Under the pieces are notes generated by a model. It was not told where the DNA came from. It searched no databases and was given only the letters and a program-made list of their open reading frames with translations. From IMG/VR virus record IMGVR_UViG_3300012940_000069, positions 1-32,268 of that record: DNA of 32,268 nt; one strand, 5' to 3'. The position numbers were made by a program, and so were the translations under genes. This document shows, one piece after another, positions 6,100 to 32,083 of the stretch (positions are counted from its first letter, which is position 1; the number at the start of each line of letters is the position of its first letter). The DNA comes from a virus (Duplodnaviria > Caudoviricetes).

Positions 6100-7320
6100 A
6101 TGCCTGACAACAATGGCTTTTTTGCCGGCCTGCGGGGGACCGGTTCCTATGGTACAGACGAGCGTCCGAAGAACTTTCGGGAGATGATCCTTTGGCTTCA
6201 GCCGAACGGAAAGGCTCCTCTCTTCGCTCTGACTTCCAAGGCACGGACTCAGCGGACTGACGATCCTGAGTTCGCTTGGTGGGAAGAGGTAATGACCATT
6301 TGCAGGGTGCGCGTCAATAACCTTGGAGGTTATAATAACGCAGCCACAGTTCTTACTGTGGATGGCGGAGATGCGCGGGAGCTGATTCCAGGCGACCTTC
6401 TCCAGTATGAGAAGCCGACGGAGACGGGGCTTTACGATAACGAAATCCTTCGTGTCGTGAGTGTTCAGTCTGCTACGCAGATTACCGTTACGCGCGGCTT
6501 TGCTGGAACCACTCCAGGCAGCCTTGCGGATGATGCCTGGCTGATGCGTGTGGGTAATGCGCAGTCGGAAGGTAACCTTTCGATTTCGTCCTCCTCCACG
6601 AACCCGGTCAAGTTCAAGAACTACACCCAGATCTTCAAGACTCCTTATCAGATCACCAAGTCTGATTTGGAGACAAAGAAGCGGACGGGTGATCCCAAAA
6701 AGAACGAGCAGAAGCGCAAGAGCTTCCAGCATGCTGAGAAGATCGAGCAGCAGCTCTTCTGGGGTATCGCTTCCGAGACGACAGACTCGACGAACAACAA
6801 CATGCCCCTTCGCACGACGATGGGCCTGCGGTCGTTCATCCAGTCCAACGTCAAAATCTGGTCTACGACTCCGACGGAGGATGAGTTCATCGACTTCGTT
6901 GCGCCCGTCTTCGACTACGAAAGTGGTGAAGCGGGGAACGAGCGGTTGGTGTTTTGTGGAAACGGGTTCTTGAACAAGCTCAATCAGCTTCGCCGAGACC
7001 ACAATAACACTAACATCAACTACCAGGGGGATATTACGTACTTCGGCATGGACCTGCAGAAGTTCAAGATCCCGCAGGGTACACTGTACATCAAGTCTCA
7101 CCCGCTGATGAACGTGCACCCTGTGTACAAAAACTCGTTCTTCGTCGTTAACGGCGCCGGTATCATCTACCGTCCCCTTGGTGGCCGCGACACGAAGCTG
7201 GAAACCAACATCCAGCCAAATGATGCGGACTACATCAAGGATCAGTGGCTGACGGAGTGTGGCTTTGAGTTCCACTTCGAACGCACCTTCGCCTATGGCG
7301 GCGGGTTCACTGACCACTAA
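6100..7320 (+). CDS. Major capsid protein (SU10/DUF5309-type, HK97 fold) with an inserted beta domain
   Basis: Motifs NYTQIFK, IEQQLFWG, RTTMGL, TYFG...IPQGTL..KSHPL and WLTECG. Strong C-ending codon bias. GGAG SD. Confidence 0.92.
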   Translation: MPDNNGFFAGLRGTGSYGTDERPKNFREMILWLQPNGKAPLFALTSKARTQRTDDPEFAWWEEVMTICRVRVNNLGGYNNAATVLTVDGGDARELIPGDLLQYEKPTETGLYDNEILRVVSVQSATQITVTRGFAGTTPGSLADDAWLMRVGNAQSEGNLSISSSSTNPVKFKNYTQIFKTPYQITKSDLETKKRTGDPKKNEQKRKSFQHAEKIEQQLFWGIASETTDSTNNNMPLRTTMGLRSFIQSNVKIWSTTPTEDEFIDFVAPVFDYESGEAGNERLVFCGNGFLNKLNQLRRDHNNTNINYQGDITYFGMDLQKFKIPQGTLYIKSHPLMNVHPVYKNSFFVVNGAGIIYRPLGGRDTKLETNIQPNDADYIKDQWLTECGFEFHFERTFAYGGGFTDH

Positions 7321-7330
7321 GGAGAGATGA

Positions 7331-7819
7331 GTGGCCCTCGGAGACCTGAGTTGGGATGAAACTGATCGCCAATGGGGCGATGCTAGCGCCGTTTATTCGG
7401 AGGCTAAGCCAGTCGCCATCATAGGTGATAGGTTCTACCAATTCGATTCGGGGGTTACTTTTGCGGCCGGTCCGGTCGAAGTTTCTTTGACTCGGACCGG
7501 CCTTACTATCCTAGGACAGGATAGGTTCGGTCAGTGGGAAATTGACCCAAGTATTATCAAAATGGTCCTTGGAATGTGGCCTGTGTTCAGGGCTGCAAAA
7601 GGAACAGTCGTACAGCTGTGGGTTGGTGGACAAGATAGCGCGGATGAAGAAATCACTTGGGAAGGCCCATATGATTTCCAGATTGGGGTGGACGACTTCC
7701 AAGATTTTACTGTGAGTGGGCGCATGATCGCAGTAAGGTTTACTTCCAAAGGACAGCTACCCTGGGAGTTGTTGTCGTATGACTTGGATATTGTCCCCGT
7801 CGGAGAACGACACTCATAA
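7331..7819 (+). CDS. Tail nozzle/stabilisation protein, C-terminal fragment encoded as a separate gene
   Basis: GTG start with an AAGGAG SD overlapping the MCP stop. WD....QWG, WEGPYDFQIG, SGRMIAVRF and W.L.SYDL....GER match, from recall, the C-terminal ~150 aa of LUZ24/PaP3-type ~510-aa tail proteins. Confidence 0.75.
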   Translation: MALGDLSWDETDRQWGDASAVYSEAKPVAIIGDRFYQFDSGVTFAAGPVEVSLTRTGLTILGQDRFGQWEIDPSIIKMVLGMWPVFRAAKGTVVQLWVGGQDSADEEITWEGPYDFQIGVDDFQDFTVSGRMIAVRFTSKGQLPWELLSYDLDIVPVGERHS

Positions 7820-7832
7820 GAAAGGTACAAAT

Positions 7833-8006
7833 ATGGAAGGTCGTGTCATTGCTGGTGTAGCTGCGGGTGGGGGCTCGGTAATTGCAAGCGTAACATCTTG
7901 GCTTACTGTAGCGGAGCAGGTGTTGCAAATCGCCTCGACGGTTGTCGCACTCGTCGCAGGTGTCGTTTCTCTAATCCTTCTTCTGAAAAAGAAGAGCAGG
8001 GACTAA
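7833..8006 (+). CDS. Putative holin (57 aa)
   Basis: ATG at 7833 with AAGG upstream. Hydrophobic segments and a basic KKK C-tail. Ends 1 nt before the endolysin. Confidence 0.7.
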   Translation: MEGRVIAGVAAGGGSVIASVTSWLTVAEQVLQIASTVVALVAGVVSLILLLKKKSRD

Positions 8007-8007
8007 C

Positions 8008-8403
8008 ATGCCAAAGTTTAGCAAGCTGTCGGAAGAAAGACTCTCGACCTGCGACTCGAGACTACAGCTTATTCTCAAAGAAGCGATTGAGCTGATAGAT
8101 TTCACGGTTCTCGAGGGGCATCGTGGTAAGGAAGCTCAGGACGAAGCTTTCCGTAAAGGAACGTCACAGCTTCCTTGGCCCAAGGGAAAGCATAATGCTT
8201 TGCCTTCGCGAGCAGTAGACATTGCGCCATATCCGATTGACTGGAACGATACTCATCGCTTTGCCTTTCTGATGGGTCTCGTTGCAGGAATTGCGAAAAA
8301 GCACAATGTCAAGGTCCGCTTCGGTTTGGACTGGAATCGGAACGGGAAGATTAATGACGAGAAGTTTAAGGACTTCCCACACGTGGAGCTAGACGAGCCA
8401 TGA
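8008..8403 (+). CDS. Endolysin, M15-family (L-Ala-D-Glu) peptidase
   Basis: HR...Q, KHN..PSRAVD and DFPHVEL zinc-peptidase motifs. Confidence 0.92.
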   Translation: MPKFSKLSEERLSTCDSRLQLILKEAIELIDFTVLEGHRGKEAQDEAFRKGTSQLPWPKGKHNALPSRAVDIAPYPIDWNDTHRFAFLMGLVAGIAKKHNVKVRFGLDWNRNGKINDEKFKDFPHVELDEP

Positions 8404-8780
8404 TACCCATTCTAGGTGAAATTGTTGAAGCTGCGGCTGGATACTTCAAGGCTCGGCAGGAGCGAAAAGTACGGGAAGCTGAAATTGACGGTAAGCTACA
8501 GGAAATTAAGCTCCAGGCAATGAGCGCGGCGGAAAACGCCGAAATTGCATTGAGTATTGCGCAGGTCAACACTGCCAAGTGGCGTGCAGATTGGTTTACC
8601 TTTCTGTTTTCCATCCCACTCATTATGGCCTTCCATCCCAAAACTGCAGCAATCGTTAAGGCTGGTTTTGAAGTCCTTGATGGAATGCCAACGTGGTATA
8701 AGGTTTACCTCGGCAGCGCCGTTGCTGCATCGTTCGGCTTGTACACGTTGAATCGTGTGTGGCAGTGGTGGCATAGTTGA
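8400..8780 (+). CDS. Holin-like membrane protein (3TM/GTA-holin type)
   Basis: N-terminal amphipathic helix, coiled coil, W(R)ADW..., two hydrophobic segments and P.WY...LG...AASFG. ATGA overlap with the endolysin. Confidence 0.7.
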   Translation: MIPILGEIVEAAAGYFKARQERKVREAEIDGKLQEIKLQAMSAAENAEIALSIAQVNTAKWRADWFTFLFSIPLIMAFHPKTAAIVKAGFEVLDGMPTWYKVYLGSAVAASFGLYTLNRVWQWWHS

Positions 8781-8807
8781 TAGCAAATACGCATGGGTTT
8801 TTGCTAT
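8776..8807 (+). repeat. 32-bp palindromic element, copy A
   Basis: GTTGATAGCAAATACGCATGGGTTTTTGCTAT. 29/32 identical to the reverse complement of 23487-23518. Confidence 0.85.
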
Positions 8808-9453
8808 GAAAAACTCCGAAGTCCTTGATCTCATGATGAAGCGGCTTGGCGACCGCAAGGCGCAAGTGCTGCGTGCGCAAGTTCTGATCGAGCTAAACAA
8901 AAAGATCAGTCAACTTGAGCAAGGATCTACGCTGCCGTGGTTTCTCGAGGACCGCTGGAACGGGCAAATGGTGGCGAATCAAGATTACGTTGACCTTCCG
9001 GCGGATTTCCTTCGGGAGTTTGAAGAGGGAAGGTTCAAGGTCCTCAACAATGAAGGGAAATGGAGTCCGCTTACACGGGTTTCCCTTGAGCAACTGGAAG
9101 AAGAAACTGACGGGGTTGACCCACAGCTTCCAGCTGGCTACGCCTTTTTCGGGGAAAAGGTGTACTTCGGTCCCGTACCTGATAAGGCGTATCAGTTCAA
9201 GCTTCCAATTTACAGAAGGTCCAATCAAATCCTCGATGATAGTAACGAGGTCACAAACAAGTGGCTTCTAAATTTCTTCAACTATGTTACGCTCGAAGTG
9301 TTGCATATCGTAGCTACGCTGCATACACGTGATTTTACACTTGCAACGAATATCAACTCCGAGCTGCTGTCTGCGCGCGATACATACTGGCGTGCAGTTG
9401 AAGCGCGAATGCATACAAATCGAGACTATTTGTTGGATAACGAGGAGCGGTAA
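8806..9453 (+). CDS. Head-to-tail adaptor (tail tubular protein A-like)
   Basis: Motifs YVDLPADF, P..YA, FGPVPDKAY and NKWL are typical of podovirus adaptors. The ATG at 8806 is preferred over the GTG at 8755. Confidence 0.8.
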   Translation: MKNSEVLDLMMKRLGDRKAQVLRAQVLIELNKKISQLEQGSTLPWFLEDRWNGQMVANQDYVDLPADFLREFEEGRFKVLNNEGKWSPLTRVSLEQLEEETDGVDPQLPAGYAFFGEKVYFGPVPDKAYQFKLPIYRRSNQILDDSNEVTNKWLLNFFNYVTLEVLHIVATLHTRDFTLATNINSELLSARDTYWRAVEARMHTNRDYLLDNEER

Positions 9454-9455
9454 CA

Positions 9456-10214
9456 ATGGGTCTTGAAACAGCCAACACAATTAACGAGCTTGTTGAGACT
9501 TGGCCGCTCCAGTCAGACAAGATTCGCCAAGGTGCTGGACACCTTCGAACTATCAAGGGAGCTCTTAAGAGAACTTTCCCTAACATCACGACTCCAGTAA
9601 CGGCTACGTCGGAAGCCCTAAATGGCTTGCCCCCAAATTTTAGCGCCTTCGTAACGGAACTTCTAAAGCACGTTGAGGCAGCTGGAACCATTAAGATTTG
9701 GGATGTTACGAATAAGCCAATCCCAGAGGGTTGGGTGCCCTGTGACGGTCGAACGGTTTCAGGCTATGGTGTAGTTCCAGACCTGCGAGACAGGTTTATT
9801 GTAGCATCAGGAACTAGCCTTGAACCTGGAACAACTGGTGGAAGTATCTCAAAAACTACTACTCCTGGTGGCGGGCATACGCCAGTGATTCAAGGGCATG
9901 CGTTGACAGAAGCGGAAAACGGCCCGCATAAGCATCTTGGTGCGATGGTTACATGTTCTGGAGACGACAACGCACAGCTTCAGGCTAACCATTGGGTTGA
10001 GATTTCTGGTGAACAGTCGCTTGGAAAGGTTAATCTTCCTGATTTTGAGACTTCATCTAGCGGCTCTGGCGTTCCACATACCCACGGAGCTGACGCGGTT
10101 CCAGACCATACACATGATGTGTCAGACGTAAGGCCTCCATACTACGCTGTACTGTTCATCATCAAGGTCGTAGATTTTGACTTTGCCTCGATTGGCGAAG
10201 TGATACCGGTATGA
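9456..10214 (+). CDS. Short tail fibre/needle protein with a tail-collar domain
   Basis: N-terminus MGLETA..I..L...WP...D....G..HLR.IK..LK.TFPNI. Collar motifs IPEGWVPCDG and PDLRDRF, HxH repeats and RPPYYAVLFIIKV. Confidence 0.8.
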   Translation: MGLETANTINELVETWPLQSDKIRQGAGHLRTIKGALKRTFPNITTPVTATSEALNGLPPNFSAFVTELLKHVEAAGTIKIWDVTNKPIPEGWVPCDGRTVSGYGVVPDLRDRFIVASGTSLEPGTTGGSISKTTTPGGGHTPVIQGHALTEAENGPHKHLGAMVTCSGDDNAQLQANHWVEISGEQSLGKVNLPDFETSSSGSGVPHTHGADAVPDHTHDVSDVRPPYYAVLFIIKVVDFDFASIGEVIPV

Positions 10215-11395
10215 GAGTTACAGTTAGCAAATTGGGAGCGCCTGGGTTTGTTCGCGACGTAGCGGAATACGCTATTGCGCCGCAGGCCTTTAATGAGGTT
10301 CGCAACGCTAGGTTCAACTCCTCCGGCATAGCGACCTTCGGTGGTGAAGTAGAGGTCATGTCGCAGGCGCCATTTGCTCCGCTGTGGCTTCGCCCTTTTC
10401 CGCCGATCGAAGCTCCTCTTTGGGTCTATGCTGACACTCAGCATGTCTTTGTCTACGACGGCGACCATCATCAGATAACTCGCAACAGTGGACCTTATTC
10501 GGGGAACGTAAATGAGCGCTGGCACGGAGAAGTCCTCAACGGGATCGGCATCTTCAACAACACCGTTGATGTGCCTCAGATGTGGCTTGACTTTGACGCT
10601 TCACAGAAACTCGCCGATCTTGCTAACTGGCCCGGAACCCTGCGGTGTAAGTTCCTGCGCCCTTGGAAAAACTTCCTATTTGCAGGCTACCTTACAGACA
10701 GCGGAGTCGAAAAGCCATTCAGAATTCGATGGAGTGACCCTGCTTTCCCCGGGACTGTACCTAGTTCCTGGGCGATAGACGATCCAACAAAGCAAAGTGG
10801 CGAAAAGGATCTTGCAGAAACTGACGACTATGTTGTAGACGGGAAGGAGCTTGGAAATTACTTCATCGTTTACAAGCAGAAATCTGCTTATGCCTTTTAC
10901 TACATTTGGCCTAACAACGACGTTTTTGCTCATGAAAAGATCTTGTCGAAAGGTATCCTTCATCGCGATTGTGTACAGGATTTTCCTCGCGGACACTTTG
11001 TCGTAGGCGTAGATGACATCTACGTTCACACTGGCCAAAAGAATAGCAATGAAAGTATTGTTGAAGCGAGGCTAAGAGATTGGGTCTTTAATCAAATAGA
11101 CTCGTCAAATTATAGGAACTGCTATACCTTTCAGCATCCACGCCGAAATGAGATCTTCTTTGCCTTTCCAGAGGCAGGAGAAACGTATCCTACAATTGCC
11201 CTTGTTTGGAATTGGGTGACGAATGGTATAGGTGTTCGAGATTTGCACGGGTCTCCGTTTATTCATCCTGGACCTATTCTTGTTTCAGTTGAAGAAGATA
11301 TTTGGGGCGAAGATTTTGTCGAGACCTTCTTCCTCGTTACACACGGCGGTGATCCGCTTGTGACGTCAGGCGGCGACAACCTTATCTGGAGTTAG
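10211..11395 (+). CDS. Tail nozzle/stabilisation protein, N-terminal fragment (beta-propeller-like) with an added C-terminal peptide
   Basis: Motifs G.V.D, NARF, RW....LNG, RWS....PGTVPSSW, VDG..L...FIVYK, HFVVG.DDIYVH.G and ALVWNW.....VRDL match the N-terminal ~365 aa of LUZ24/PaP3-type nozzles. Ends in LVTHGGDPLVTSGGDNLIWS. Confidence 0.8.
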   Translation: MRVTVSKLGAPGFVRDVAEYAIAPQAFNEVRNARFNSSGIATFGGEVEVMSQAPFAPLWLRPFPPIEAPLWVYADTQHVFVYDGDHHQITRNSGPYSGNVNERWHGEVLNGIGIFNNTVDVPQMWLDFDASQKLADLANWPGTLRCKFLRPWKNFLFAGYLTDSGVEKPFRIRWSDPAFPGTVPSSWAIDDPTKQSGEKDLAETDDYVVDGKELGNYFIVYKQKSAYAFYYIWPNNDVFAHEKILSKGILHRDCVQDFPRGHFVVGVDDIYVHTGQKNSNESIVEARLRDWVFNQIDSSNYRNCYTFQHPRRNEIFFAFPEAGETYPTIALVWNWVTNGIGVRDLHGSPFIHPGPILVSVEEDIWGEDFVETFFLVTHGGDPLVTSGGDNLIWS

Positions 11396-11397
11396 CA

Positions 11398-12906
11398 ATG
11401 GCTAACAAAACAATCGATGATCTTCCAGCTTCTAGTGCTCTCACGGGTAGTGAAGTCGTTCCAGTATCACAAGAAGGTGCGACAGTAAAGACTACAGCTG
11501 CGAACATTGCGGCCCTTGCCCCCAAACAAGATCACAATACGCTATTGAACTTGACTGTCGGAGATGCGCATCCGCAATATCTAAATCAGGTTCGCGGCGA
11601 CAATAGATATGTACAGCTTACTCGCCAGATTACAGCAGGAAACGGGTTGTCTGGCGGTGGAGACCTCAGCGCAAATCGTTCCTTCTCGGTCAAGGCAACA
11701 GCTAATGAGGGCATTACAGTTACCGTAAACGGAGTCGAGCTGGACATCAATGGCCTTGGCGCTTTGCCTGAGTCTGTTGATCCAACTGAGGACATGCTCG
11801 TAATTTGGAATGCAAGTGAAAGCCGTGAGCGCAAGGTGAGCGTGGCTACGGCCTTGGCTGGAGCCAGCGGCTTTGTTCCTACAGGTCGAACAATTACAGC
11901 GGGCGGTGGCCTAACTGGTGGCGGCGATCTTTCACTTGACAGAACACTTGCAGTTGGCGCAGGAACCGGCATTAGCGTAGATGCTGATTCTGTTGGGCTG
12001 GATACCTCGCATCCATGCAACGTCGATCACAGTGCTGTAAGCATCAATGCAGGTACAGGCCTAGTTGGTGGTGGAACGATAACTGCAAATAGAACGATTT
12101 CCCTTAATACTTCAAGTACACGGAATGTAGACCACAGCGCCGTTTCCATTATAGGTGTTAACAGTATTACAGGCGGAGGCGACCTTTCAGCAAGTCGAAC
12201 GATGCAGCTTCAGGGAGACGCAGCTTCGCCTGGAAATAATGCTTTCTACGGAACAAACGGTTCTGGAGTTAAAGGCTGGTACGCTATTTCGAGTGTAAAT
12301 ATTGCTTGGGGGCAAATAACTGGTGTAAAGGATGCAGATCGGTTGCAGGGTAATCCAGCCAGTGCGTTTGCAGCGGCAGGTCATACGCATAATCTTTCGT
12401 CCCTTAGTGGTCAAGTAACGAACGCTCAAGTTCCCCAATCGGCGGTTACGCAGTACCAAGCTGCACTAAGTATAGGGTGGGGGCAAGTAACTGGTACATC
12501 TTCTTCTGGCGCACGATTCCTTGCTTTAGGTGTTGGAATTGATCCTGGTAGTGCTGGAACAATTAGAGCAACTGGCAACATCATAGCGTTCGAGACTTCT
12601 GATGAGCGATTCAAGGAAAACATTCTTCCAATTAAAGATGCTCTCAATTACCTGTCTCACATCCGTGGAGTGTCCTTTAACTGGACGGAAGAATACTTGC
12701 AGCGCGAGGGTGGTGCTGATGGGTACTTCCTTACGAGAGACGATGTAGGTGTGATTGCTCAGGAAGTAGAGAATTACTTCCCGAACCTTGTCAGAACCAG
12801 GGTGGATGGAACTAAAGCGGTCAAGTATGACAAGTTTATTCCTTACTTAATCGAAGCTATTAAAGAGCTATATGAGCGCGTTCAAGAGCTTGAGAGGGCT
12901 CGATAA
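11398..12906 (+). CDS. Long tail fibre with C-terminal intramolecular chaperone (peptidase S74)
   Basis: N-terminal KTIDDLP...LTGSEVVPVSQ.G.T.K module, four GxGLxGGG(D/T)(L/I)SxxRT-type repeats, SDERFKENI autocleavage motif, GVIAQEVE and a terminal coiled coil. Confidence 0.9.
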   Translation: MANKTIDDLPASSALTGSEVVPVSQEGATVKTTAANIAALAPKQDHNTLLNLTVGDAHPQYLNQVRGDNRYVQLTRQITAGNGLSGGGDLSANRSFSVKATANEGITVTVNGVELDINGLGALPESVDPTEDMLVIWNASESRERKVSVATALAGASGFVPTGRTITAGGGLTGGGDLSLDRTLAVGAGTGISVDADSVGLDTSHPCNVDHSAVSINAGTGLVGGGTITANRTISLNTSSTRNVDHSAVSIIGVNSITGGGDLSASRTMQLQGDAASPGNNAFYGTNGSGVKGWYAISSVNIAWGQITGVKDADRLQGNPASAFAAAGHTHNLSSLSGQVTNAQVPQSAVTQYQAALSIGWGQVTGTSSSGARFLALGVGIDPGSAGTIRATGNIIAFETSDERFKENILPIKDALNYLSHIRGVSFNWTEEYLQREGGADGYFLTRDDVGVIAQEVENYFPNLVRTRVDGTKAVKYDKFIPYLIEAIKELYERVQELERAR

Positions 12907-13853
12907 TGCCTACGCCTAGCGGTCGTATTAGCTTTGAAGATATTCGTGTCGAGTTCAATGGCCTTGTTCCCATACTCCTGAGCGACTATTACCTTGCACC
13001 TACAGGGGTAGTTCCCATTTATCTTCCAAACCAGGGACTTCCTACTTCTGGTCCACTATCCCTCGCAGATCTTAGATCAAGGTCTCGACTGCGAGCTGTA
13101 CTTCCAGCTGGGGGTTTTAGTTTTAGTGGAGTTGGTTCTACTCAAAGATATATAGGCTTTTCTCTTGATCCTACTGATAATCTTTGGAGACTTAGGCGGG
13201 GAGCGGGTGCACCACCTTCAGGAGTCACTTCTAGTGGAACATGGAGGTTCAGCGGCGCAGCTTCTGAATACGAGATAATGTGCACTGCAACCAAAGACTT
13301 TTACCCAGCCAGTCTGGCGAGAAATGTCTGGTATAATTTGGGAGGTGGAGCCACTTTTTACTTTGATGGTCAGAGTATTGCACCTAATGTTACTGGAACG
13401 GTATATATCCGTTATGCAAGTACACAACTACTGCTTACAACTTGTGGATTCAATTTCAGTTGGGATCCTGGCCTTCCATCTATTACGGCAGGCATAGCAG
13501 GGAGTGAGCCTCTTTACAGAGGATATGGAAATGGTAGCTCTGGAGTACCGCTCATAGGCTCGATATCTAATGCCGATGTATCTGGATTAGGAACTATAGT
13601 TGGTATTTATGAAGAGTATTTCTCACTAACAACAAGTCATAGATTCACTGTGGAAGTTTCCAATAACGTTTCTCAGAATGCTTTTTCTACTATATCGTTT
13701 GTAGGAAAAGGGGGAGTATTTCGGTCCTTTAATACGAGTTCAGCAACTTTTACTCACCCAGGCGGTACTCGTAGCCGATGGCAGTGGCTTCCTGGCGATG
13801 GACCAACAGAATATTTTGGTCTCGGAGAAACTTACACCTTTAACATATCATGA
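12906..13853 (+). CDS. Putative fibre-tip adhesin / receptor-binding protein
   Basis: N-terminal SG.IS..DI..EF.....LSDYY...P.SG.LSL.DL module typical of proteins that follow S74 fibres. G/S/T/aromatic-rich beta content and A/T-ending codons. Confidence 0.7.
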   Translation: MPTPSGRISFEDIRVEFNGLVPILLSDYYLAPTGVVPIYLPNQGLPTSGPLSLADLRSRSRLRAVLPAGGFSFSGVGSTQRYIGFSLDPTDNLWRLRRGAGAPPSGVTSSGTWRFSGAASEYEIMCTATKDFYPASLARNVWYNLGGGATFYFDGQSIAPNVTGTVYIRYASTQLLLTTCGFNFSWDPGLPSITAGIAGSEPLYRGYGNGSSGVPLIGSISNADVSGLGTIVGIYEEYFSLTTSHRFTVEVSNNVSQNAFSTISFVGKGGVFRSFNTSSATFTHPGGTRSRWQWLPGDGPTEYFGLGETYTFNIS

Positions 13854-14092
13854 GTTATACCCCAATTGAAAGGGTCTCTGACCCAGCAGCGCAACGAGAA
13901 TTTCGTCGGATCGCTGAGTCTTTAAACTCCATTGCCGTGGGCAGGATTGTTGTCCTCCACGTTGCCCCCTCAAAGCCGTATGACGGGCAAGTTGTAATCT
14001 GCGATGGAGTTCATTGGAATCCGCTGAATGACGGACTCAAGCGTCCAATTTGGTTTGATGCCGAGGCAAATCTATGGAAGCCCTTCGCATAG
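13850..14092 (+). CDS. Small conserved tail protein
   Basis: EFRRIAESL...LHVAPSKP.DG.VV..DG..WNP motif, recalled from the gene that normally follows the nozzle in related podoviruses. ATGA coupling. Confidence 0.7.
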   Translation: MSYTPIERVSDPAAQREFRRIAESLNSIAVGRIVVLHVAPSKPYDGQVVICDGVHWNPLNDGLKRPIWFDAEANLWKPFA

Positions 14093-15348: not shown

Positions 15349-16464
15349 ATGGCTATTGCAGATCTTCTTCAAGCTCTCTTTATGCGACAGCCAGCAGCGC
15401 AACCGCTACCTCCCGTTGTCAATCCCATTGGTGGCGGTACTCCTTCAACACCAACACCAGTACCGGGAATAAATGGCCCCGTAACACCGGCTGTCAATCC
15501 CGCCTACGGCATCCCCAATAACGTTATGGGGCCGCCTAGCCCGGCTGTGGACCCGGCCCGGCAATCCGGTGGCATTTTCAACGCCATACGGACTACCCTT
15601 GCAGACCCAAATTTTCGAGCAGCTTTGATGACGACCGGGGCAAACCTGCTACGTAGTCCTGGTTATGGGCAAGGCGCTGGAGATGTTGCTGCTGACGCTA
15701 TTACAACTGGCATTGGAACATTGCAGGGACTTAGGCAACAGCAGCGTCAAGTGGAGATGCAGCAGCAGAAGCGGGCTGATGAGCGTGAAGATGCCTTGGC
15801 CCGTCGCCGTCAAGCTGAGCAGCAAATTGACATCAATCGTCAACAGGTTGAAGGTCAAATCGAAGCACAGCGGAAGGCTGATACTCGTGGCACTCGTCAG
15901 CTGACTGAAACTGAGAGGTCTAATCGTGCTAGGGAAGAAATTGAGCGTATTCGTGCGGAAGCTGATCGAACGCGCGCGAATGCGTATAGAGCAGCTGGCA
16001 TTGGAAGGACACCGCAGGATATTCAAAAAATTAACATGCTTGCTGCACAATACATGGCAGAGGGTATGGACGAGACTGCGGCAAAAGCCAAAGCTGTCAT
16101 GGTTGTGGAAAGCACTGGACGTGCTAAGTCGCCAGGTGAGCAGGCTCGTTCGCTGTATGAAGCAAGGCTAAAAGCTTGGCAGAATGACTTCCAGAATTTT
16201 GGTAAGACTCTGACTGCCGAGCAAGCTAAGCAAATGCTTGAAGAGTCCATGAACGATGTCATGTATCTACACCAGTTCAACCAGACCACGACAGGGATGC
16301 CAGGCACGCCACGTCCGACTCAACGGAGTGGGCCGATTCAGCGGCCTGGAGATAACGTTCGACGAAGCCCAGTGGGGACTATAAGGAATGGCTACAAGAA
16401 GATCAAGGAAGGCCCCGATACGGATCAAACCACTTGGCAGAAGGTGAACGACAGTGGCGAATGA
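15349..16464 (+). CDS. Internal virion (ejection) protein
   Basis: ATG at 15349 with a GGAGG SD. Pro-rich N-terminus, coiled coil with ETERSNRA.E, and C-terminal PVGTIRNGY...W.KV mini-module. Confidence 0.75.
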   Translation: MAIADLLQALFMRQPAAQPLPPVVNPIGGGTPSTPTPVPGINGPVTPAVNPAYGIPNNVMGPPSPAVDPARQSGGIFNAIRTTLADPNFRAALMTTGANLLRSPGYGQGAGDVAADAITTGIGTLQGLRQQQRQVEMQQQKRADEREDALARRRQAEQQIDINRQQVEGQIEAQRKADTRGTRQLTETERSNRAREEIERIRAEADRTRANAYRAAGIGRTPQDIQKINMLAAQYMAEGMDETAAKAKAVMVVESTGRAKSPGEQARSLYEARLKAWQNDFQNFGKTLTAEQAKQMLEESMNDVMYLHQFNQTTTGMPGTPRPTQRSGPIQRPGDNVRRSPVGTIRNGYKKIKEGPDTDQTTWQKVNDSGE

Positions 16465-19400
16465 AGTTCTCCCTCCGTGGGAGGAAGCCAAGAAGACTTC
16501 TTCCCCTCCGCCTCCGTGGGAAGAAGCTCGAAACGCTCTTCCACCTCCCTGGGAAGAGGCTCAGGCTTCGGCTTCGACTTCGACTCAGGGTTCTCTTCCT
16601 CCTCCCTGGGAGGAAGCTCAGGGTTCTCCGCCAATTGATACATCACTTGACCAGCCTTCGCCTCTTGATCGTCAAGGGAAGTTTCTGTCGAATGTCTATA
16701 GCCCGCAAGCGGCTATCGGGTCTGCCCTGTTGAACGTAGCAAATAAAACAGCATCAGGGCTAAATAGAACAATAATCAGTTCTTTGAGAGGTATTCCGGA
16801 GCTAGCGGAAGTTATTCAAAACACTGGTGCTGATGAACCTTTTCAGCCAACCTGGAAGGCGCCTGTAAGTTCAATGCTTGTAGGTGTTAATAAGCTTTTG
16901 AAGAAACTCGAGGACGAGGTTACACTTCCGCCAGACCCAAACGCAGCTTGGTATGAACAACTTCCTGAAGCGTTTGGTAGTGCTGTAGGATTTATGGGCC
17001 TTGGTTGGGCTGCTGGTGCGGCAGGGTTTACACCTACACTTGCATCTGCTGCTCTCGGCGGTGCAGCTGGCGCAGTTGACCAGTATGACGATGCAATCGC
17101 TCATGGCGCTACACCAGAGCAAGCTGCTATTGCCTATGCAGGAGGAGCAGCCTTTGGCTTGACAGAAGCAGTTCCTGGAGGGATATTTCTTAATAAGCTT
17201 AATCAACTTACGAAGGGAAAGGTTTACGAAGCCATTAAGGCTTATAATCTTAGCGGAGAGACAGGGGTTACACTGGAAACCGTAAAAGGGTTCTTTACGG
17301 AAGCTATTCAAGAAGGTGTACAAACTATCGGATCGAATTGGGTTGCTAGCGACCTTGCGGGCTATGACCCAACAAGAACGCTCGGTGAGAACTTTTGGGA
17401 AAGCGTAGTAACAGGTGGGGTTGTTGGGAGCTTCATTGGAGGAGGACTTGCCCTTATTCGTAAAGGTCAAAGGAATGAAATACTTGCTGCATTGGAGGCT
17501 GAGCGGCGGGCGAAACTTGCAAGTAACGATCCCATTAATTTTATTGAAGGACAGTTTACTCCTGTTGGAGATCTTGTTCGCCTGCGTGGCATTCACGAGG
17601 AGCTTCGTCAGAGGCTTGAGGAGCGTAAGGAAACAGCTCATCAGGAGTTCTTAGTTCCTAAAGAGGGTACGGATATAATTCCTTACAGCTTTCAAGAGCC
17701 TCGTCACGTCGGTTACGACGCGGAAGCTGATAAGGACAAGGCACTAGCGCTAACACTTTTGGATAAGAAAGTAAGCCCTATCGAAAAAGCGCTTCCAAAA
17801 GCCCAAGACGGTTCAAGCATAACTGTTCGTGAAGCTTTGGAGATAACTCCTGTTGTAGCAGTAGATGCCAATCCTTACGATGAGCTTATCAAAACTATAA
17901 CAACGAACATCGACAAGATTAGCAAGCTGCCTACTGAGGGACTAAGTCCTTCAGCTTTGAAGAAACGGCAGCGAACCCTAGAACTGCTTAAGGGCCGCCG
18001 AATTGACTTGATTGCAAAGCAGCAAATTGCTGATAACTTGCTTGCGCAAGTCAAGTCGTATGCAGCAGTGTTTACAAAGGTCTTGAATCCAGACCTCAAG
18101 CTTATCGTAACCGATGTTCCAACGGTTAAGGAAAAGCTTGCTGGATTCTTTCAGCTAACAAATAATTACAAGATGCTAAATGGAAAGTCCGTCCCCCTCG
18201 GACTGCTCTACGTGGATGTAGACGAACTTGCAACTCAAATTTATCTCGACAAGAAAGCAAAGACAAACGAGCACACACATCGAGCTCGACGGCGTTTGTT
18301 TGAGACGCTTAACCATGAGCTTGGCCACTCGATCGCTACAAATCTTATAGCTCAGATTTTCAGGGACTATGAAAGCCCAGACCAGAAAATAAAGGAAGAT
18401 GCTATTAAGCTTAGTGCAGTCCTTCTTGAAGAATATCAGCGTTGGCTGGAGAAAGCTGCTCAATCTCCTCAGGCATTTTTGTTGTTAACGCAATTTGCTC
18501 CGCAAAGAGCAATAAGTGCTGCAAAGTCAGAGGGCGCAGAAAACATTAACTTGACTCCTATGACAGCGCCCTTGCCAGCAAGCTGGGCTTCAAAGGAGTA
18601 TCTGCTTTCGTTTGACGAGTTCTTTGCAGAAATGACTGCAAGACTTGCCACACAAGAAAGCTTTAGCGACGAGGTGATGACTAGATATTTCAAACCTGTA
18701 ATCGCTCAATATAAGGCTATGTTTGAGCATATGCCTCCGTTTGTTAAGAGCGAGTACGGAAATGACTGGAAGTTGTTCCTTGAAACAAGGAAGTTTGCTT
18801 ATAAGGTAAATGCGGAACTTGAGCGCGTTGCTGCTGCAGGTGGAAGCGATATCATCAAGGTCCTTCGCTACGGCCTTAATGATTTTGATGAGAAGTTTGC
18901 CGGACTACAAGAGCATCTTGATAAGTTTGATAAAATCATCTCGGTGGGGTTTAATCTCCTGCAAATTGTAAAGGAAAACCCTCATATCCCCCACTTACAA
19001 CGTTATCTACAAGCTGTCACAAACTGGGCTGAATATCAGCGCAACTTTCAGGCAGATGCTGTTGACACGCTAAAGGCGTGGAAGAACTTGGGCAAAGTAG
19101 AAGCAGCGCAGCTTGCTGACGTATTGTACGAAGAGGCGCTGAATAAAAAGAGGTTTATAGAAGACGAGCTTGCCCGTAGGCTTACAAATGAGGCACTGGA
19201 CGTATACAAGCAAGTTCGCGGGCAGCTAGATCGTGTACTGGAAGAAATGCGCACTACAGCACTTACTGATGCTGCGCGTACTATTATCGATAGCGAAGAG
19301 CAGCTTAAGCAGGAGATTGCTGGCATAAACGCAGACTTCGACAAGCTTAAGGCGCAAGGGTATTTTCCCTTTATGCGCTTTGGAAATCACACAATAACTG

Positions 19401-22123
19401 CACGTGCGAAGAGAGACTTTAACCACAAGGGAGTTAATTATAAAAAGGGGCAGCTTATTTCCTTTGAGGCATACGAATCTGTAAAGGAACGAGACTTGGC
19501 CTTGGGGGAGCTTCGAAAGGAGTTGGGTGTTAACGCCGTTGTTGCAAGCGGTAAGATGCGTGAGACGGACTTCGTTGTGCAAGGCATGCCACGTGCGCTC
19601 TTGCGAAGCTTGCGAGGGAAGCTAGAAGCTACGAAAAACTTTACCCCAGAACAGGCCGCAGCGTTCGAGCGCTGGGAGGCGCAGGTTGCTCCGTTTAGGA
19701 GTTTCCGTAAACACCTGCTTCGCAAGCGAGGAATTCATGGGTATAGCGAAGACGCCATTCGCAGCTTTGCTTACTATATTCGCTCCGGCGCAGGGCATAT
19801 TGCGAGGGTAAAGTTCGCTGACGATTTGCACGACCCAATTCAAAGCATGCAGCAGGATGTAGCTATCATTCAGGAATACGGTGGTCGCAGCGACGAACGT
19901 CAGGAAATGCGCCACTGGCTGGATAGACACTTCAGCTACATTATGAACCCTGATAATGAGTGGGCGGTGCTGCGTAGCGTTGGGTTCGTAGCGTACTTAG
20001 GGTTTAACGTAAAGTCTGCTGTCGTAAATGGCATGCAGATTCTAACTACCGTCGCGCCATATTTGGCCGCAAGATATGGAGATGTTAAGGCTATAAGTGC
20101 CTTGACAAAGGCAACCTGGACACTAAGGGATTGGGTTGCTAATAGGCAGAAGTTCCTCAATGCAATGGACTCTGCTCAAGACAAGCTTAAAGCAAAGTTG
20201 AGGTATGCGCTGCGTATTGGGAAGATTGAGGGCGGTGCAGCGCACTTTACACTAGATTTTGGCGAGGATTCTCTGTTTGAGGAATTTCTCTCAGACGTAG
20301 GCGGGGAAGTTGATGCCTATGACCTTAGCAAGCTAAAGGTTGCGCCAAACACTCTTGAAGTTAGAAAACTCATTCTGCAAAAGACACTTGAACTGGAACA
20401 GGCTGGGAATCGTGGAAACTTGCAGTCTGGTTCCGGCGAGCTGTTTGGAACGAGAGAATTGCTTGCCCCAGAAGAAATCGTTAGTGAAATCACGATGATG
20501 CTGGAGAGTAACAATATTCCTCCGTTCGACCCGCAGATGGCTGAGGAGCTTGGACTCTATCGTGGAGCACTAGCGCTTGGCTACGATGCAATGCTGATTA
20601 TGGAGTCGGGGGATGACATCAACTCGACGACACTAAGCGTATTTAACAATACGAATAAGATTAAGAAGATCGACAAGAAAACCTTTGAGCGAAATCGAAA
20701 TGCATCTCAAGCTCGAGAGAATCTTAGAGAGAATCGCATTGCGAGGCTCATCGAGCGAGGCAAGCATGAAGGTTGGCTAGATCAGAGCTTGGCAACTGAA
20801 ATTGCAATCGCTGCCTCGGAAAACAATCTTGACCGGGGGCTTTACCTTCCGAAAGTAAGGCGTTTCTGGCACGAAGTCAGCAGGTTCAGCGCTCTTCCAT
20901 TCCACCTGGTTGAAAAGATGAACCGCTACATCACAGCGATCGCTGCTTATGAGCTCGAATTCGCAGAAAGTGGTTCGCACGAAAAGGGCGTGCTCGCTGC
21001 GCGTCAGGCAAACTGGACTGCGAACTACGAGAATGCCAGATGGAACCGCCCCGAATTCATGCGAGGGAAAAAATCTGTGTTTTTCCTCTTCGCTAATTAT
21101 CTGCAAAACACATTGTACTTTGCTACTCATGATCCAGGGGCCCTCCGTTATTGGCTTATGATGATGCTCTTAGGTGGCTTGATGGGGTTGCCAGGGGCAG
21201 AAGACGTAGCAGACCTCGTGGACTTTACGGCTACTTACTTCAGTCGAATCCTTGGGATTAAGGAGCCGAAGACTCAAATCCGTCGGGAACTTCGGGAGCA
21301 CCTCGAAGAGCTTGGCGCTAACCCAGACCTCATTCTTCATGGCATAAGCCAAAGCACCTTTGGACTTGCGCATGTAGGTGAACTCACCGGCATTCCTATC
21401 CCGCATTTGGACCTCTCCCGTAGTGTAGGCATGGGAGACGTAGTACCGCTGACCGAAGTGCCTTCCATGTTTCTTCAGTCTGAGCCGAACGATATTCTTG
21501 TAGCAGCTGCTCGATCCGCAGCGGGCGCGAGTGGAAATCTCGTTGAGTCATACTATCGTGGGCTTCTGTCTGATGATCCCAATGACTGGAAATCCATCGA
21601 GAGAATACTACCACTAGTGGCTGCAAAGAATCTGTCGAAGGCGGCTCGTCTTGCAATTGAAGGGAAAGAAACCACTTCGTCTGGTGATGTAATTGGATCA
21701 TTTGATCTGGGCAACCCAAGGGACCAACTTGAAATTCTAGCACAGGCCCTTGGATTTTCGCCTGCGAGATTGATACTCGGATGGGAGCGTCAAATGGCGC
21801 AGCGCGATATGATTCAATACTACAAAGTCCAACAAGAGGCACTGCTGCGAGACATGAATTGGGCACTCTTCCAGGAAGATCGGGAGGCGCGGGCCGATGC
21901 CCTTGCAAGTATCCGCAAATATAATGAGCAAGTGCCCTTGCCTGAGATGAAAATAGGGACTCAGACAATTCGGGACTCATTTAAGTCTTACCTCGCGAAA
22001 CAAGCAACTTCCGCGCTAGGTTTGGCAGCCGAGAAAAAATATCGTCGCCTGCGTGAGCAAGTTGAGAAATCTTTCCCTGACCCACTTGGCAATGCCGGCA
22101 TGGCCGGAGATTCTGCGCCTTAA
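16454..22123 (+). CDS. Large internal virion/ejection protein, polyvalent (zincin metallopeptidase, PLxRFG region, ART-like insert)
   Basis: 1889 aa. Four PPWEEA repeats, Gly/Ala-rich membrane-like helices, HELGH...EFFAE, YFPFMRFG and LGYDAML...VFNN.NKIK. Confidence 0.85.
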   Translation: MANEVLPPWEEAKKTSSPPPPWEEARNALPPPWEEAQASASTSTQGSLPPPWEEAQGSPPIDTSLDQPSPLDRQGKFLSNVYSPQAAIGSALLNVANKTASGLNRTIISSLRGIPELAEVIQNTGADEPFQPTWKAPVSSMLVGVNKLLKKLEDEVTLPPDPNAAWYEQLPEAFGSAVGFMGLGWAAGAAGFTPTLASAALGGAAGAVDQYDDAIAHGATPEQAAIAYAGGAAFGLTEAVPGGIFLNKLNQLTKGKVYEAIKAYNLSGETGVTLETVKGFFTEAIQEGVQTIGSNWVASDLAGYDPTRTLGENFWESVVTGGVVGSFIGGGLALIRKGQRNEILAALEAERRAKLASNDPINFIEGQFTPVGDLVRLRGIHEELRQRLEERKETAHQEFLVPKEGTDIIPYSFQEPRHVGYDAEADKDKALALTLLDKKVSPIEKALPKAQDGSSITVREALEITPVVAVDANPYDELIKTITTNIDKISKLPTEGLSPSALKKRQRTLELLKGRRIDLIAKQQIADNLLAQVKSYAAVFTKVLNPDLKLIVTDVPTVKEKLAGFFQLTNNYKMLNGKSVPLGLLYVDVDELATQIYLDKKAKTNEHTHRARRRLFETLNHELGHSIATNLIAQIFRDYESPDQKIKEDAIKLSAVLLEEYQRWLEKAAQSPQAFLLLTQFAPQRAISAAKSEGAENINLTPMTAPLPASWASKEYLLSFDEFFAEMTARLATQESFSDEVMTRYFKPVIAQYKAMFEHMPPFVKSEYGNDWKLFLETRKFAYKVNAELERVAAAGGSDIIKVLRYGLNDFDEKFAGLQEHLDKFDKIISVGFNLLQIVKENPHIPHLQRYLQAVTNWAEYQRNFQADAVDTLKAWKNLGKVEAAQLADVLYEEALNKKRFIEDELARRLTNEALDVYKQVRGQLDRVLEEMRTTALTDAARTIIDSEEQLKQEIAGINADFDKLKAQGYFPFMRFGNHTITARAKRDFNHKGVNYKKGQLISFEAYESVKERDLALGELRKELGVNAVVASGKMRETDFVVQGMPRALLRSLRGKLEATKNFTPEQAAAFERWEAQVAPFRSFRKHLLRKRGIHGYSEDAIRSFAYYIRSGAGHIARVKFADDLHDPIQSMQQDVAIIQEYGGRSDERQEMRHWLDRHFSYIMNPDNEWAVLRSVGFVAYLGFNVKSAVVNGMQILTTVAPYLAARYGDVKAISALTKATWTLRDWVANRQKFLNAMDSAQDKLKAKLRYALRIGKIEGGAAHFTLDFGEDSLFEEFLSDVGGEVDAYDLSKLKVAPNTLEVRKLILQKTLELEQAGNRGNLQSGSGELFGTRELLAPEEIVSEITMMLESNNIPPFDPQMAEELGLYRGALALGYDAMLIMESGDDINSTTLSVFNNTNKIKKIDKKTFERNRNASQARENLRENRIARLIERGKHEGWLDQSLATEIAIAASENNLDRGLYLPKVRRFWHEVSRFSALPFHLVEKMNRYITAIAAYELEFAESGSHEKGVLAARQANWTANYENARWNRPEFMRGKKSVFFLFANYLQNTLYFATHDPGALRYWLMMMLLGGLMGLPGAEDVADLVDFTATYFSRILGIKEPKTQIRRELREHLEELGANPDLILHGISQSTFGLAHVGELTGIPIPHLDLSRSVGMGDVVPLTEVPSMFLQSEPNDILVAAARSAAGASGNLVESYYRGLLSDDPNDWKSIERILPLVAAKNLSKAARLAIEGKETTSSGDVIGSFDLGNPRDQLEILAQALGFSPARLILGWERQMAQRDMIQYYKVQQEALLRDMNWALFQEDREARADALASIRKYNEQVPLPEMKIGTQTIRDSFKSYLAKQATSALGLAAEKKYRRLREQVEKSFPDPLGNAGMAGDSAP
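16469..16620 (+). repeat. Four ~18-20-bp coding repeats (PPWEEA)
   Basis: cctcc(g/c)tggga(g/a)ga(a/g)gc occurs four times. Confidence 0.9.
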
Positions 22124-23463: not shown

Positions 23464-23486
23464 CGTAAAACCTCGTCTTATATTTT

Positions 23487-23518
23487 ATAGCAAAAACGGT
23501 TGCGTATTTGCTATCAAC
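23487..23518 (-). repeat. 32-bp palindromic element, copy B
   Basis: Minus strand reads GTTGATAGCAAATACGCAACCGTTTTTGCTAT, in the intergenic gap between the polymerase and DUF3987 genes. Confidence 0.85.
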
Positions 23519-23521
23519 AAC

Positions 23522-26026
23522 TCATGCCCAGCTAATTTCTTCGCAGTCTCCCCACGACTTGTCAGAAATCTTTATTCCCGCCTGGAAGACCAGCGGGAAG
23601 CTATAGGGGACTGTGATTGTGAGATGCTTATGGAGTCTCGGTTTGACCCAGTTTGTGAGGTATGCTGGCCACTGAAAGACGGATGAGTCGTGAACTTGTA
23701 GAAGAAACTCAACTCTTGCCCTTCTAAGCTCTTCGTCATCTGTAATGTTAAGTATTCCAAGGTTGGTCGCAATGGCAACTGTAGATTGTGGAATCCAAGC
23801 CAAGGCTTCTTTAAGGAGATTGTCAATTCGATCGAAATAGAATCTTCTGTAGCCGAAAGCGTTTTCTACATAGCGCTTAGTGGCTAGTTGCAACTCGATT
23901 CTGCGGTGCCACTTCGGAATGCCAGTTCGAACACTAAAATAGCGCTTTTGAAACTTGGCTGCTTCGTTGACTGTAATGCCCAAGGTCCGAGCAAGAACTT
24001 GCGGCGTTCCACCGTAGTGTGTAAGGTGAACTCCCTGCTTTGCGAGGTAATAGTTCAACGTACCCTTTTTCGGGGCCTGGCCAAAAATGATCTCGCCATT
24101 GACGTAATGGAGGTTTGGTGCATTTGGGTCAAGAAAGTGATCCATCAAGGACTTGTCTTCTGATTCCCATGCCACCACTCTTGCGTCAGCTTGCGGTAAG
24201 TCAAATTCTCCGAGGCAAAATCCTGGATCTGGTACAAACATCTTGCGGAGATTGGGAAGAGGCCAATACTCTTCCGCCCGTTCTCCCGAGGTGATATTCT
24301 GACCGTTAGTTCCAAATCCAAAGGGGTCTGCAGATGATGCGAATCTGTACGTTTCAGTTCCTGGAATGGTATACTGACAACGAAATCTTCCGTCAGCGTC
24401 AAGAGGTGTATTGCAAACTGAGAGCGCATTAGCGAGAGACCGCTGGTGGTTGATTGCGCTGATGAGTGGATAGAGCAAGACGTCTCGCTTGCCATAGATT
24501 TCGAGAATATCTCCACCAAGCGACGGAGACTTCGTTTTACGATCGAGAATCTTTTCCTGCTTGAGTTCGTCATAAAACAACTTCCTCATCTGTGGAGTCG
24601 ATCGTACATTTAAGGGATGACCTAAAACCTGCTCCAGCCACACCTGGTTTTGATAGATGTCGTTGTGGAGCATGAACATGAGCCTATTTTTATAGTCATG
24701 GTCTACACGAATGCCCCGGGCAGAGGAACGAGCAACAGGCGTTGATAGCCGCTGCTGAATTTCGTGTGGAGTGCCGTATACAGTGCGCCGAAGCCCCCGC
24801 TGATCTCGGGCGCGCATAAGAACTTCAGCGATCTCATATGTTGCAACGCAGTCGCGGCAGTTGTAAGTCCACCAAGTAATGGGGTCGCCCTTCCCCATTT
24901 CCTTGCCCTCGTCCTTCCAGTAAATGTGGACATCTCGATAAAGGCTAGACTGGAAATCAAGTCCCTTTGGCAATCCTGGAAATTGGACGTGGTGCTCGCT
25001 CATGCAGTCGAGGTATAAGTTTACCTCAAACCCCCAATACTTCGCTATGTATTGGTAGTCATACTGCCAGTTTTGTCCGATGATTCGAGCATTCGTGTGA
25101 GTGAGAAGGTCCCGCAATAGCAAGACGATAGCAAACTCCTCGTCGGCTGTCCAATAGTGTTTGTCTCCCTTACGCGGGTCGAGGAAAGGGAGACATATGG
25201 CGTCGGTCTTAGACCAAGCGATACCAATACAGGCGAGATGTCTCCGGGAGGTTTCGATATCCACTGCCAAATAGGTAGGACCGCGCTGTACTTGAAGCAG
25301 CAATGCTTCGAGTGTACTTCGTGCAACTGCAAAGCTTGGTTCGACATAGAAGTTTTCCTCTACTGTAGGAAAACCGATATATTCAGCCCATCTTTTAACC
25401 CGTCGGAGATCGTGAACAGCAAGAGTTCTGTATTCCCAATTCCGAAGTATGGCGGCGGGGTGGATAGTGGGAATAACCTTAATTCGGGAATCGGCCTCGA
25501 AGGAATCGTGCAATCGTAGTAGGCTACCTCGCCACTTGGTAATTCCATTTTGACGAGTAAGGGCCCATAACGGGAGATTTCCAAGAGGCACAATGATATT
25601 TGGTTTAGTAGTCGCGATTTCATCTTTGAGCTCCTGTAGACCTTCGACTACCCGGGGATCGAAGTAGTCTGTGTCATACTTGACCATGGAAGGGGTGATG
25701 TACTTCTTGACTTGTTTCCCACCAGCGCCTTTCTTTGGCCACCAAAGTTCCATTTTATTTCCAGGAGGGCGATAGTGGCAGACATTTGCAACGCGACACT
25801 CACTACGCAAAATGCCAGCCTCGTTAAGCATCTTCGTAAGCTCGCGACCACTGCCGCCTACGAAGGGACGACCTTCTTTTTCTTCCTCCTTTCCGGGCGC
25901 TTCGCCAACAATGAGAATCTTCGCAGGCTGTGGCCCAAAGTTAGGAACCTTACGGCTATCGAATTGAGGGGCCTCTTCTGCCTGTTCATTCAAGGCTGCA
26001 CGAATACGCTCGGAAAGGGTTGTCAT
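23522..26026 (-). CDS. Family A DNA polymerase with N-terminal family-4-like uracil-DNA glycosylase and 3'-5' exonuclease domains
   Basis: UDG motifs GEAPG..E...GRPFVG.SG and HPAAILR. Exo I DIET, Exo II QNWQYD, Exo III YNCRD. Pol motifs TYRFAS, A (DLPQAD), B (K...H...YG) and C (QVHDS). Confidence 0.93.
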   Translation of the reverse strand: MTTLSERIRAALNEQAEEAPQFDSRKVPNFGPQPAKILIVGEAPGKEEEKEGRPFVGGSGRELTKMLNEAGILRSECRVANVCHYRPPGNKMELWWPKKGAGGKQVKKYITPSMVKYDTDYFDPRVVEGLQELKDEIATTKPNIIVPLGNLPLWALTRQNGITKWRGSLLRLHDSFEADSRIKVIPTIHPAAILRNWEYRTLAVHDLRRVKRWAEYIGFPTVEENFYVEPSFAVARSTLEALLLQVQRGPTYLAVDIETSRRHLACIGIAWSKTDAICLPFLDPRKGDKHYWTADEEFAIVLLLRDLLTHTNARIIGQNWQYDYQYIAKYWGFEVNLYLDCMSEHHVQFPGLPKGLDFQSSLYRDVHIYWKDEGKEMGKGDPITWWTYNCRDCVATYEIAEVLMRARDQRGLRRTVYGTPHEIQQRLSTPVARSSARGIRVDHDYKNRLMFMLHNDIYQNQVWLEQVLGHPLNVRSTPQMRKLFYDELKQEKILDRKTKSPSLGGDILEIYGKRDVLLYPLISAINHQRSLANALSVCNTPLDADGRFRCQYTIPGTETYRFASSADPFGFGTNGQNITSGERAEEYWPLPNLRKMFVPDPGFCLGEFDLPQADARVVAWESEDKSLMDHFLDPNAPNLHYVNGEIIFGQAPKKGTLNYYLAKQGVHLTHYGGTPQVLARTLGITVNEAAKFQKRYFSVRTGIPKWHRRIELQLATKRYVENAFGYRRFYFDRIDNLLKEALAWIPQSTVAIATNLGILNITDDEELRRARVEFLLQVHDSSVFQWPAYLTNWVKPRLHKHLTITVPYSFPLVFQAGIKISDKSWGDCEEISWA

Positions 26027-31085: not shown

Positions 31086-31281
31086 CCTCCTCCTCGTCCC
31101 ATTCGTCCCAATCCGAATCGTCTTCGTCTTCGTCTTCGTCTTCGACTTTCTCGATTTCAAGGTCTTCTTCGTTCATACAAGTGCCTCCACTTGGGGCCAC
31201 GCCCCAATATCGCTCCTCTTTGTCGTCACACATCACGATGAGCAGAGCAAGCGCATCACACAGGCGCTGGTGCTTACTCAT
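31075..31281 (-). CDS. Small protein with a hyperacidic C-terminus (possible internal start at 31176)
   Basis: Starts in a junction repeat (GAGG SD + ATG). 24 of the last 33 residues are D/E. Confidence 0.65.
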   Translation of the reverse strand: MSKHQRLCDALALLIVMCDDKEERYWGVAPSGGTCMNEEDLEIEKVEDEDEDEDDSDWDEWDEEEDED

Positions 31282-32056: not shown

Positions 32057-32083
32057 CGCTGCGGTCCTCCGGTTACACCCGAC

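Follow-up and report, generated by a model that had tools for sequence, protein, structure and literature searches.

How does a podophage build its tail nozzle when the nozzle gene lies in two separate pieces, with the piece for the C-terminal end upstream of the piece for the N-terminal end? The question is posed by IMG/VR virus record IMGVR_UViG_3300012940_000069, a linear record of 32,268 nt from an uncultured phage (completeness estimate 72%), the whole of which is called the window here. Family profiles recognised its podophage structural module (terminase, SU10-type portal, capsid and adaptor). A first-pass annotation had read two open reading frames (ORFs) on the + strand, at 10211-11395 and 7331-7819, as the two parts of one nozzle of the LUZ24/PaP3 type; both frames are open at exactly these coordinates, each with its own start, and we call them the N-piece (394 aa) and the C-piece (162 aa). 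Our account, which we hold to be very likely, is that one ancient fission cut a tail-hub gene of the LUZ24/Pa223 type inside a fibre-holding loop with three tryptophans, the C-piece ending up before the lysis genes; that a single nozzle subunit is formed by both chains, as co-folding predicts; and that the freed ends probably serve for the outward attachment of add-on modules.

The two pieces match the family phrog_3287 without overlap, at positions 11-349 (N-piece) and 379-524 (C-piece) of 524. They cover the tail hub gp59 of phage Pa223 (PDB 9nwi, chain 9nwi_Y) in the same adjacent manner, at residues 12-346 (E 2.6e-45) and 370-509, which confirms that the halves are complementary, as first proposed. 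The same structure was the first match for the predicted models of both pieces (Foldseek E 1.2e-26 for the N-piece; 9nwi, 8zkk and SU10 at the top for the C-piece). Like Pa223 gp59, LUZ24 gp56 and the PaP3-type proteins, the divided nozzle belongs to PHROG 3287 and retains the fold, the loop tryptophans and the fibre partner. The intact gene is a single ORF in LUZ24 (513 aa) and in Mel-JY34 (529 aa), and phrog_3287 proteins are otherwise single polypeptides; the window departs from the family in having two ORFs and, in this 72%-complete record, no intact copy. The nozzles of SU10 (PDB 7z47) and of Vibrio phage VP1 (gp16, PDB 8zkk) have a homologous propeller and platform, but are also single chains.

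The position of the cut is best appreciated from Pa223. The available text of that study describes residues 354-387 as the fibre attachment loop, in which W363, W370 and W377 present the trimeric fibre with a pseudo-three-fold surface, and residues 2-46 plus 403-512 as the adaptor-binding insertion domain (bioRxiv 10.1101/2025.06.11.659172). A matching Trp triad and a velcro-closed propeller are described in the accessible part of the SU10 report (PMC9509320), and the loop tryptophans of LUZ24 gp56 are again at 363/370/377. In the window, the nozzle part of the N-piece ends at W365 and the C-piece opens with W8 and W15; the gene is therefore cut in the outward loop, between Trp1 and Trp2, just where the first-pass annotation had put the break. 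That annotation also had the first ORF stop at Trp1, which holds for its nozzle part only, as the ORF runs on for 29 residues into a conserved, non-nozzle, triple-repeat tail. The fibre gripped by this loop in Pa223 has been retained: a homologue of its gp60, a short trimeric tail fibre (collar fibre), is encoded at 9456-10214 on the + strand (9nxk_A, E 7.7e-16; SU10 7z47_I residues 4-55). The three-Trp loop and the gp60-type fibre are thus both present, with the tryptophans divided over two ORFs.

The N-piece contains the N-terminal platform strands, the beta-propeller and Trp1, followed by its tail, while the C-piece contains Trp2, Trp3, the last propeller strands and most of the platform beta-sandwich. 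When each was folded alone, confidence was low over the first 30-40 residues. When the two were folded together, the pair scored 0.94 against 0.01 for the best control, with at least 74% of contacts shared between runs and a partner pLDDT (predicted local distance difference test) of at least 81; the mark used was reached by 116 of 157 solved pairs and by 2 of 215 mismatched pairs. The predicted interface joins N 1-62 and 344-358 to C 21-63 and 144-155: N 1-62 contacts the sandwich of the C-piece, and N 344-358 packs with C 21-46, closing the propeller. This fits the architecture of the intact protein, with which a comparison had been suggested, and the prediction favours the proposal that the nozzle assembles from two polypeptides. 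In such a subunit the platform would begin with strands of the N-piece, which would also give most of the propeller and Trp1, and would be completed by the C-piece, the source of Trp2 and Trp3 and of the strands that close the propeller. The Trp triad on which the short fibre docks would be made up by both chains.

There is a precedent for such an assembly. The accessible text on the Pseudomonas podophage A1002 (Kochitakasuvirus) describes a split nozzle, solved by cryo-electron microscopy, of a nozzle base (gp42) and a nozzle rope (gp39) (PMC13730344, PLoS Biol 2026). According to the same text, the N chain comprises platform-N and most of the propeller and the C chain the closing blades and platform-C; the cut lies in the fibre-dock region, and the free end of the C chain is a long rope that binds fibre dimers (PMC13730344). 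The window system resembles A1002 in that the products of two genes are predicted to complement each other in platform and propeller, in that the cut is at the fibre-dock region, and in that the C-pieces of some relatives carry long repeat-rich extensions. It differs in that the cut runs through a clamp of three Trp that takes a trimeric fibre, in that the window C-piece has no rope, and in that no link in sequence to the A1002 type was detectable, the nearest relatives being intact phrog_3287 proteins. In KPP25, a relative of A1002, genes of matching length occur in the order N, fibre, fibre, C; the counterparts (398 and 620 aa), assigned from length and order, belong to phrog_8040 and phrog_26502 and did not score on our nozzle profiles. 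Since the counterparts fall in other families without similarity to these profiles, the two fissions are judged to be independent. In contrast to the collinear KPP25 genes, the C-piece here lies 1.7-3.8 kb ahead of the N-piece, from which it is separated by lysis, adaptor and fibre genes. Judged by sequence, a gene of the LUZ24/Pa223 family was here split independently, its pieces now standing in reversed order with the Trp clamp divided between them; a similar but unrelated split was first described in 2026. In a literature search chiefly of open-access papers, A1002 was the sole split phage nozzle among the matches listed (the best 20 of 372 in one listing), no reversed-order split nozzle was found, and the available portion of PMC10386132 makes no mention of a split tubeB.

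We then considered whether the arrangement is peculiar to one record. The locus counts are redundant, and the 36 fetched loci with both pieces represent about 15 distinct phages. The C-piece is upstream of, and on the same strand as, the N-piece in 36/36 loci that have both as separate ORFs, so that the permuted order first noted in the window also holds in related genomes. Five genes were said to separate the halves in the window, and do so: those for a small membrane protein, an endolysin, a holin-like protein, the SU10-type adaptor and the collar fibre. Across the loci the usual order is capsid, optional accessory genes, C-piece, usually lysis genes, adaptor, fibre, N-piece, optional long fibre and a needle-like gene. 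Two phages at 69-79% identity keep this order with other lysis genes between the pieces, and it persists, with other intervening genes, down to about 41% N-core identity. The deep member G001 (95% complete) has the same order, spanning the contig ends; both G001 and the complete terminal-repeat genome G002 contain a single match to each piece, the two being separate, and G002 has no intact nozzle copy.

A misassembled contig might produce such an order, and the record, being uncultured and 72% complete, invites the thought. However, the order is kept in distant relatives with different genes between the pieces, and contigs of a close strain from another study, about 98% identical, cross the region, including one that is unbroken from 7100 to 11900. 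We regard misassembly as refuted by the relatives with the same order, and its residual probability as negligible.

The pieces are also conserved. Compared with three relatives, both show 70-80% amino-acid identity with saturated synonymous sites, and the adaptor is lower, at 43-54%; both pieces are under purifying selection. This bears on the idea that the N-piece alone is the nozzle and the C-piece a relic, or a protein with another job, an idea that draws on the place of the C-piece beside capsid and lysis genes, away from the tail genes, and on its being assigned to virions by deduction. Yet conservation is equal in the two pieces, and the C-piece contains most of the platform domain to which the adaptor binds in Pa223 and SU10; it also diverges in step with the N-piece (Mantel r 0.66, 0/5000 permutations; shared ancestry alone could suffice for this). 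We consider a nozzle made of the N-piece alone very improbable; the split is real and conserved, and its product is probably a two-chain nozzle.

When did the gene break? A tree was built from 76 N-cores, reduced from 106 through 105 by dereplication and hand pruning. All 43 split N-cores fall in one clade (Shimodaira-Hasegawa-like approximate likelihood ratio test, SH-aLRT, 100), joined at its unresolved base by the single intact protein P0072. Split-only monophyly, forced on a 34-row subset, was not rejected (approximately unbiased test, p-AU 0.64). Among the C-pieces, 14 group in a clade without P0072 (SH-aLRT 94). The shortest C-pieces, L072:4665-5099 (144 aa) and L136:1495-1971 (158 aa), start 3-5 residues ahead of Trp2, and because they begin just before Trp2, the cut site is identical in the deepest lineages. 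The simplest reading of these trees is a single ancient origin of the split; the split itself is real, old and common to a clade. The clade size is a lower bound. Among cultured phages, no member of the clade was found, the best identities being ≤35% for the N-piece (best 30 of 269 matches) and ≤29% for the C-piece (best 30 of 120 matches). A collection of bacterial and archaeal genomes, searched with a single pattern and hence weakly, gave no relatives. A search with the C profile for longer proteins (7999 candidates scored) returned one 751-aa C-piece without an N domain and two distant intact proteins.

A needle-like gene lies directly 3′ of the intact nozzle in 64/68 intact loci (a redundant set), as in LUZ24, where the needle gene directly follows the single 513-aa chain; bare N-pieces, which lack a tail, are likewise followed by it. 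Because intact nozzles and bare N-pieces both adjoin the needle-like gene, it was the C-piece that left its position before that gene, either because it was relocated or because the gene was duplicated and the copies lost opposite parts. The ancestral order adaptor, fibre, nozzle, lysis, from which the segment had been supposed to be circularly permuted, finds no counterpart: no nozzle-lysis ancestor was seen among the intact loci, and in the two inspected that have lysis genes nearby, these precede the nozzle.

The permutation had been linked to an 8-mer, TGGGGCGA, found in frame at both breaks (7373-7380, codons for Trp3-Gly-Asp, and 11303-11310, codons for Trp1-Gly-Glu; both on the + strand) and only at these two places in the window. 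Recombination there, it was suggested, could excise a 3.9-kb circle with a full-length gene, or could have produced the gene order, and contigs of one run do break at 11288-11314. The repeat is present as described, but as a recombination site it does not hold up: it is no more than expected by chance, since the motif Trp-Gly-Asp/Glu fixes 7/8 letters, and in 12 related loci where both break windows are present, these windows share words of at most 4-7 nt, mostly TGGGG. Moreover, by sequence, circularising 7373-11302 would not restore a full-length gene, as the join keeps one loop Trp of three. Contigs of 7 runs, which may drop rare variants, have no such joint, the contig from the other study covers the whole region, and no replication origin was identified on the circle. 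We regard the circle as highly improbable. Much the same applies to covalent rejoining of the products by a trans-splicing intron or a split intein. The complementary ends, with little loss between them, would permit it, but the spacers are 10 nt ahead of the C-piece and 2 nt past the N-piece; no Rfam match occurs in the window, neither piece matches an intein family, and the piece ends differ freely in length across the clade. Rejoining is, in our view, scarcely to be expected, and two separate chains remain the preferred reading.

What, then, became of the freed ends? Among 52 non-intact N-pieces, 23 end ≤4 residues from loop Trp1, 18 have a triple-repeat tail and 11 carry long appendages of 119-271 residues, three of them with LamG domains (three rows were reclassified by eye). 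The C-pieces have N-terminal extensions before Trp2 that range from none to about 590 residues, often of short repeats; the window C-piece has 7 residues there. The C-pieces L030:1880-3403, L074:6878-8329 and P0103 measure 483-751 aa, with long extensions rich in repeats whose layout resembles that of the A1002 rope, and L014 and L074 encode small proteins of fibre-dimer size, of which that of L014 is a phrog_3758 member, like KPP25 ORF006. SU10, by comparison, adds domains within the propeller, not at a cut loop. Intact nozzles can also carry additions in or near the same loop, as in L107:1082-3865 (an insertion of about 300 residues) and L052:10001-11731 (a duplicated Cys-containing segment), and therefore the loop tolerates insertion without a cut.

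The window N-piece belongs to the class with a triple-repeat tail (11327-11392, +), a candidate docking element of three short hydrophobic strands with a period of 8. Directly downstream lies the gene of a long tail fibre with a Peptidase_S74 chaperone (11398-12906, +; PF13884). In all 9 tail-bearing loci the next gene, mostly for a long fibre, has one type of N-terminal domain, which matched no named family and no solved relative, and which no intact locus has. Tail and domain occur together in 9/27 split loci with complete N-pieces, and the other 18 have neither; branches with the pair have sisters without both. We lean towards the view that the tail docks this second, long trimeric fibre, with a three-fold logic like that of the Trp triad. 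The larger picture, in which the cut loop would be a two-ended plug-in site, with the clamp rebuilt from chains encoded in reverse order, the tail docking an extra fibre and each subunit bearing two trimeric fibres, seems to us evenly balanced between right and wrong. In run X2, contigs break at 11288-11314, with 6 differences in the 850 nt before and 51 in the 913 nt after, which hints at an exchange of tail and fibre together, as one module; run X3 spans 11288-11314 unbroken.

Alternatively, the chains co-assemble but the fission was neutral, the add-ons are incidental and the tail docks nothing. The split did persist without add-ons, because 23/52 N-pieces and the deepest lineages are bare-ended. 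A neutral fission leaves aside, however, the strict pairing of tail and fibre genes on separate branches and the fact that appendages (LamG, repeat-rich and others) were gained repeatedly at precisely the freed ends; we consider it unlikely.

Several points weigh against our account as a whole. The co-fold may reflect likeness and not amount to proof, because the intact homologues (9nwi, 8zkk and SU10) had already been solved, and since the Trp loop (N 359-371, C 1-20) lies outside the confident contacts, we infer the rebuilt triad. The presence of both chains in virions, the docking of the fibres and the role of the add-ons are also what we infer. In free trees the intact P0072 sits inside the N-core clade, with weak support, and may instead reflect re-fusion or a second origin; no locus was found for this intact sister. 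For database proteins, “split” means that the C domain is lacking, the partner gene being seen in loci only, and 19 loci have the N-piece only, all with <3.6 kb of upstream DNA and among them L101, a cut gene of intact type. Finally, the tail-fibre pairing amounts to about four branches, 6/9 of the fibres were used to build the profile, and one of the 9 tails (L027) is degenerate.

Breakage of the fibre-holding loop is tolerated by a core virion protein, and has occurred at least twice, in unrelated nozzle lineages. In the accessible text on A1002, the authors offer only speculation on the origin of their split (PMC13730344); the present set includes intact sisters as well as split forms both bare and decorated, so that the steps can be put in order. 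The cut loop seems to mark a natural site at which podophages gain receptor-binding parts. If the docking of a second fibre is true, this case and A1002 would make nozzle fission at the fibre dock a path taken more than once towards new tail attachments; the tail peptide and its fibre would form a portable docking module. Annotators who meet a “truncated” nozzle should be aware that the missing part may be encoded kilobases upstream.

The remaining features of the region were as follows. The major capsid protein (6100-7320, +; PF17236 SU10_MCP, phrog_1328) is the upstream landmark for the C-piece, whose GTG start at 7331 is 10 bases past the capsid stop. The strong Shine-Dalgarno sequence ascribed to the C-piece is present as AAGGAG at 7319-7324 (+), with the GTG 6 nt further on, and L007, L005 and L055 have purine-rich runs ahead of the equivalent start. 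The lysis cassette between the pieces (7779-8780, +; phrog_465, phrog_2524) comprises the small membrane protein, endolysin and holin-like genes, the membrane-protein and holin labels being our own reading of the sequence, and is replaced by other lysis genes in the close relatives L007 and L005. The head-tail adaptor (8806-9453, +; PF24175 SU10_adaptor) is listed as an ORF that opens at 8755; its relatives begin at Met 8806. The needle-like gene (13850-14092, +) matched LUZ24 gp55 with its own profile (E 8e-7) and nothing in the PDB by sequence, and the label “needle” refers to its position relative to Pa223 gp58. No sigma-70 promoter was found on the + strand between 5900 and 12200.

A 36-nt element occurs in two inverted copies (89%), each internally palindromic, at 8776-8811, right before the adaptor start, and at 23483-23518, right before a primase gene on the opposite strand. 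The exact pattern was absent from related loci and matched only two copies of the window's own DNA; the element is possibly an operator or terminator. Interleaved direct repeats of 23-29 nt, in 3-4 copies, some of them at a spacing of 190 nt, lie among small genes at 31233-32152 and are possibly early promoters or origin elements. A family A DNA polymerase with an N-terminal domain of the uracil-DNA-glycosylase superfamily is encoded at 23522-26026 (-). Lastly, an 1889-aa protein at 16454-22123, with DarB-like PHROG matches and N-terminal PPWEEA repeats, is probably a large ejection protein.

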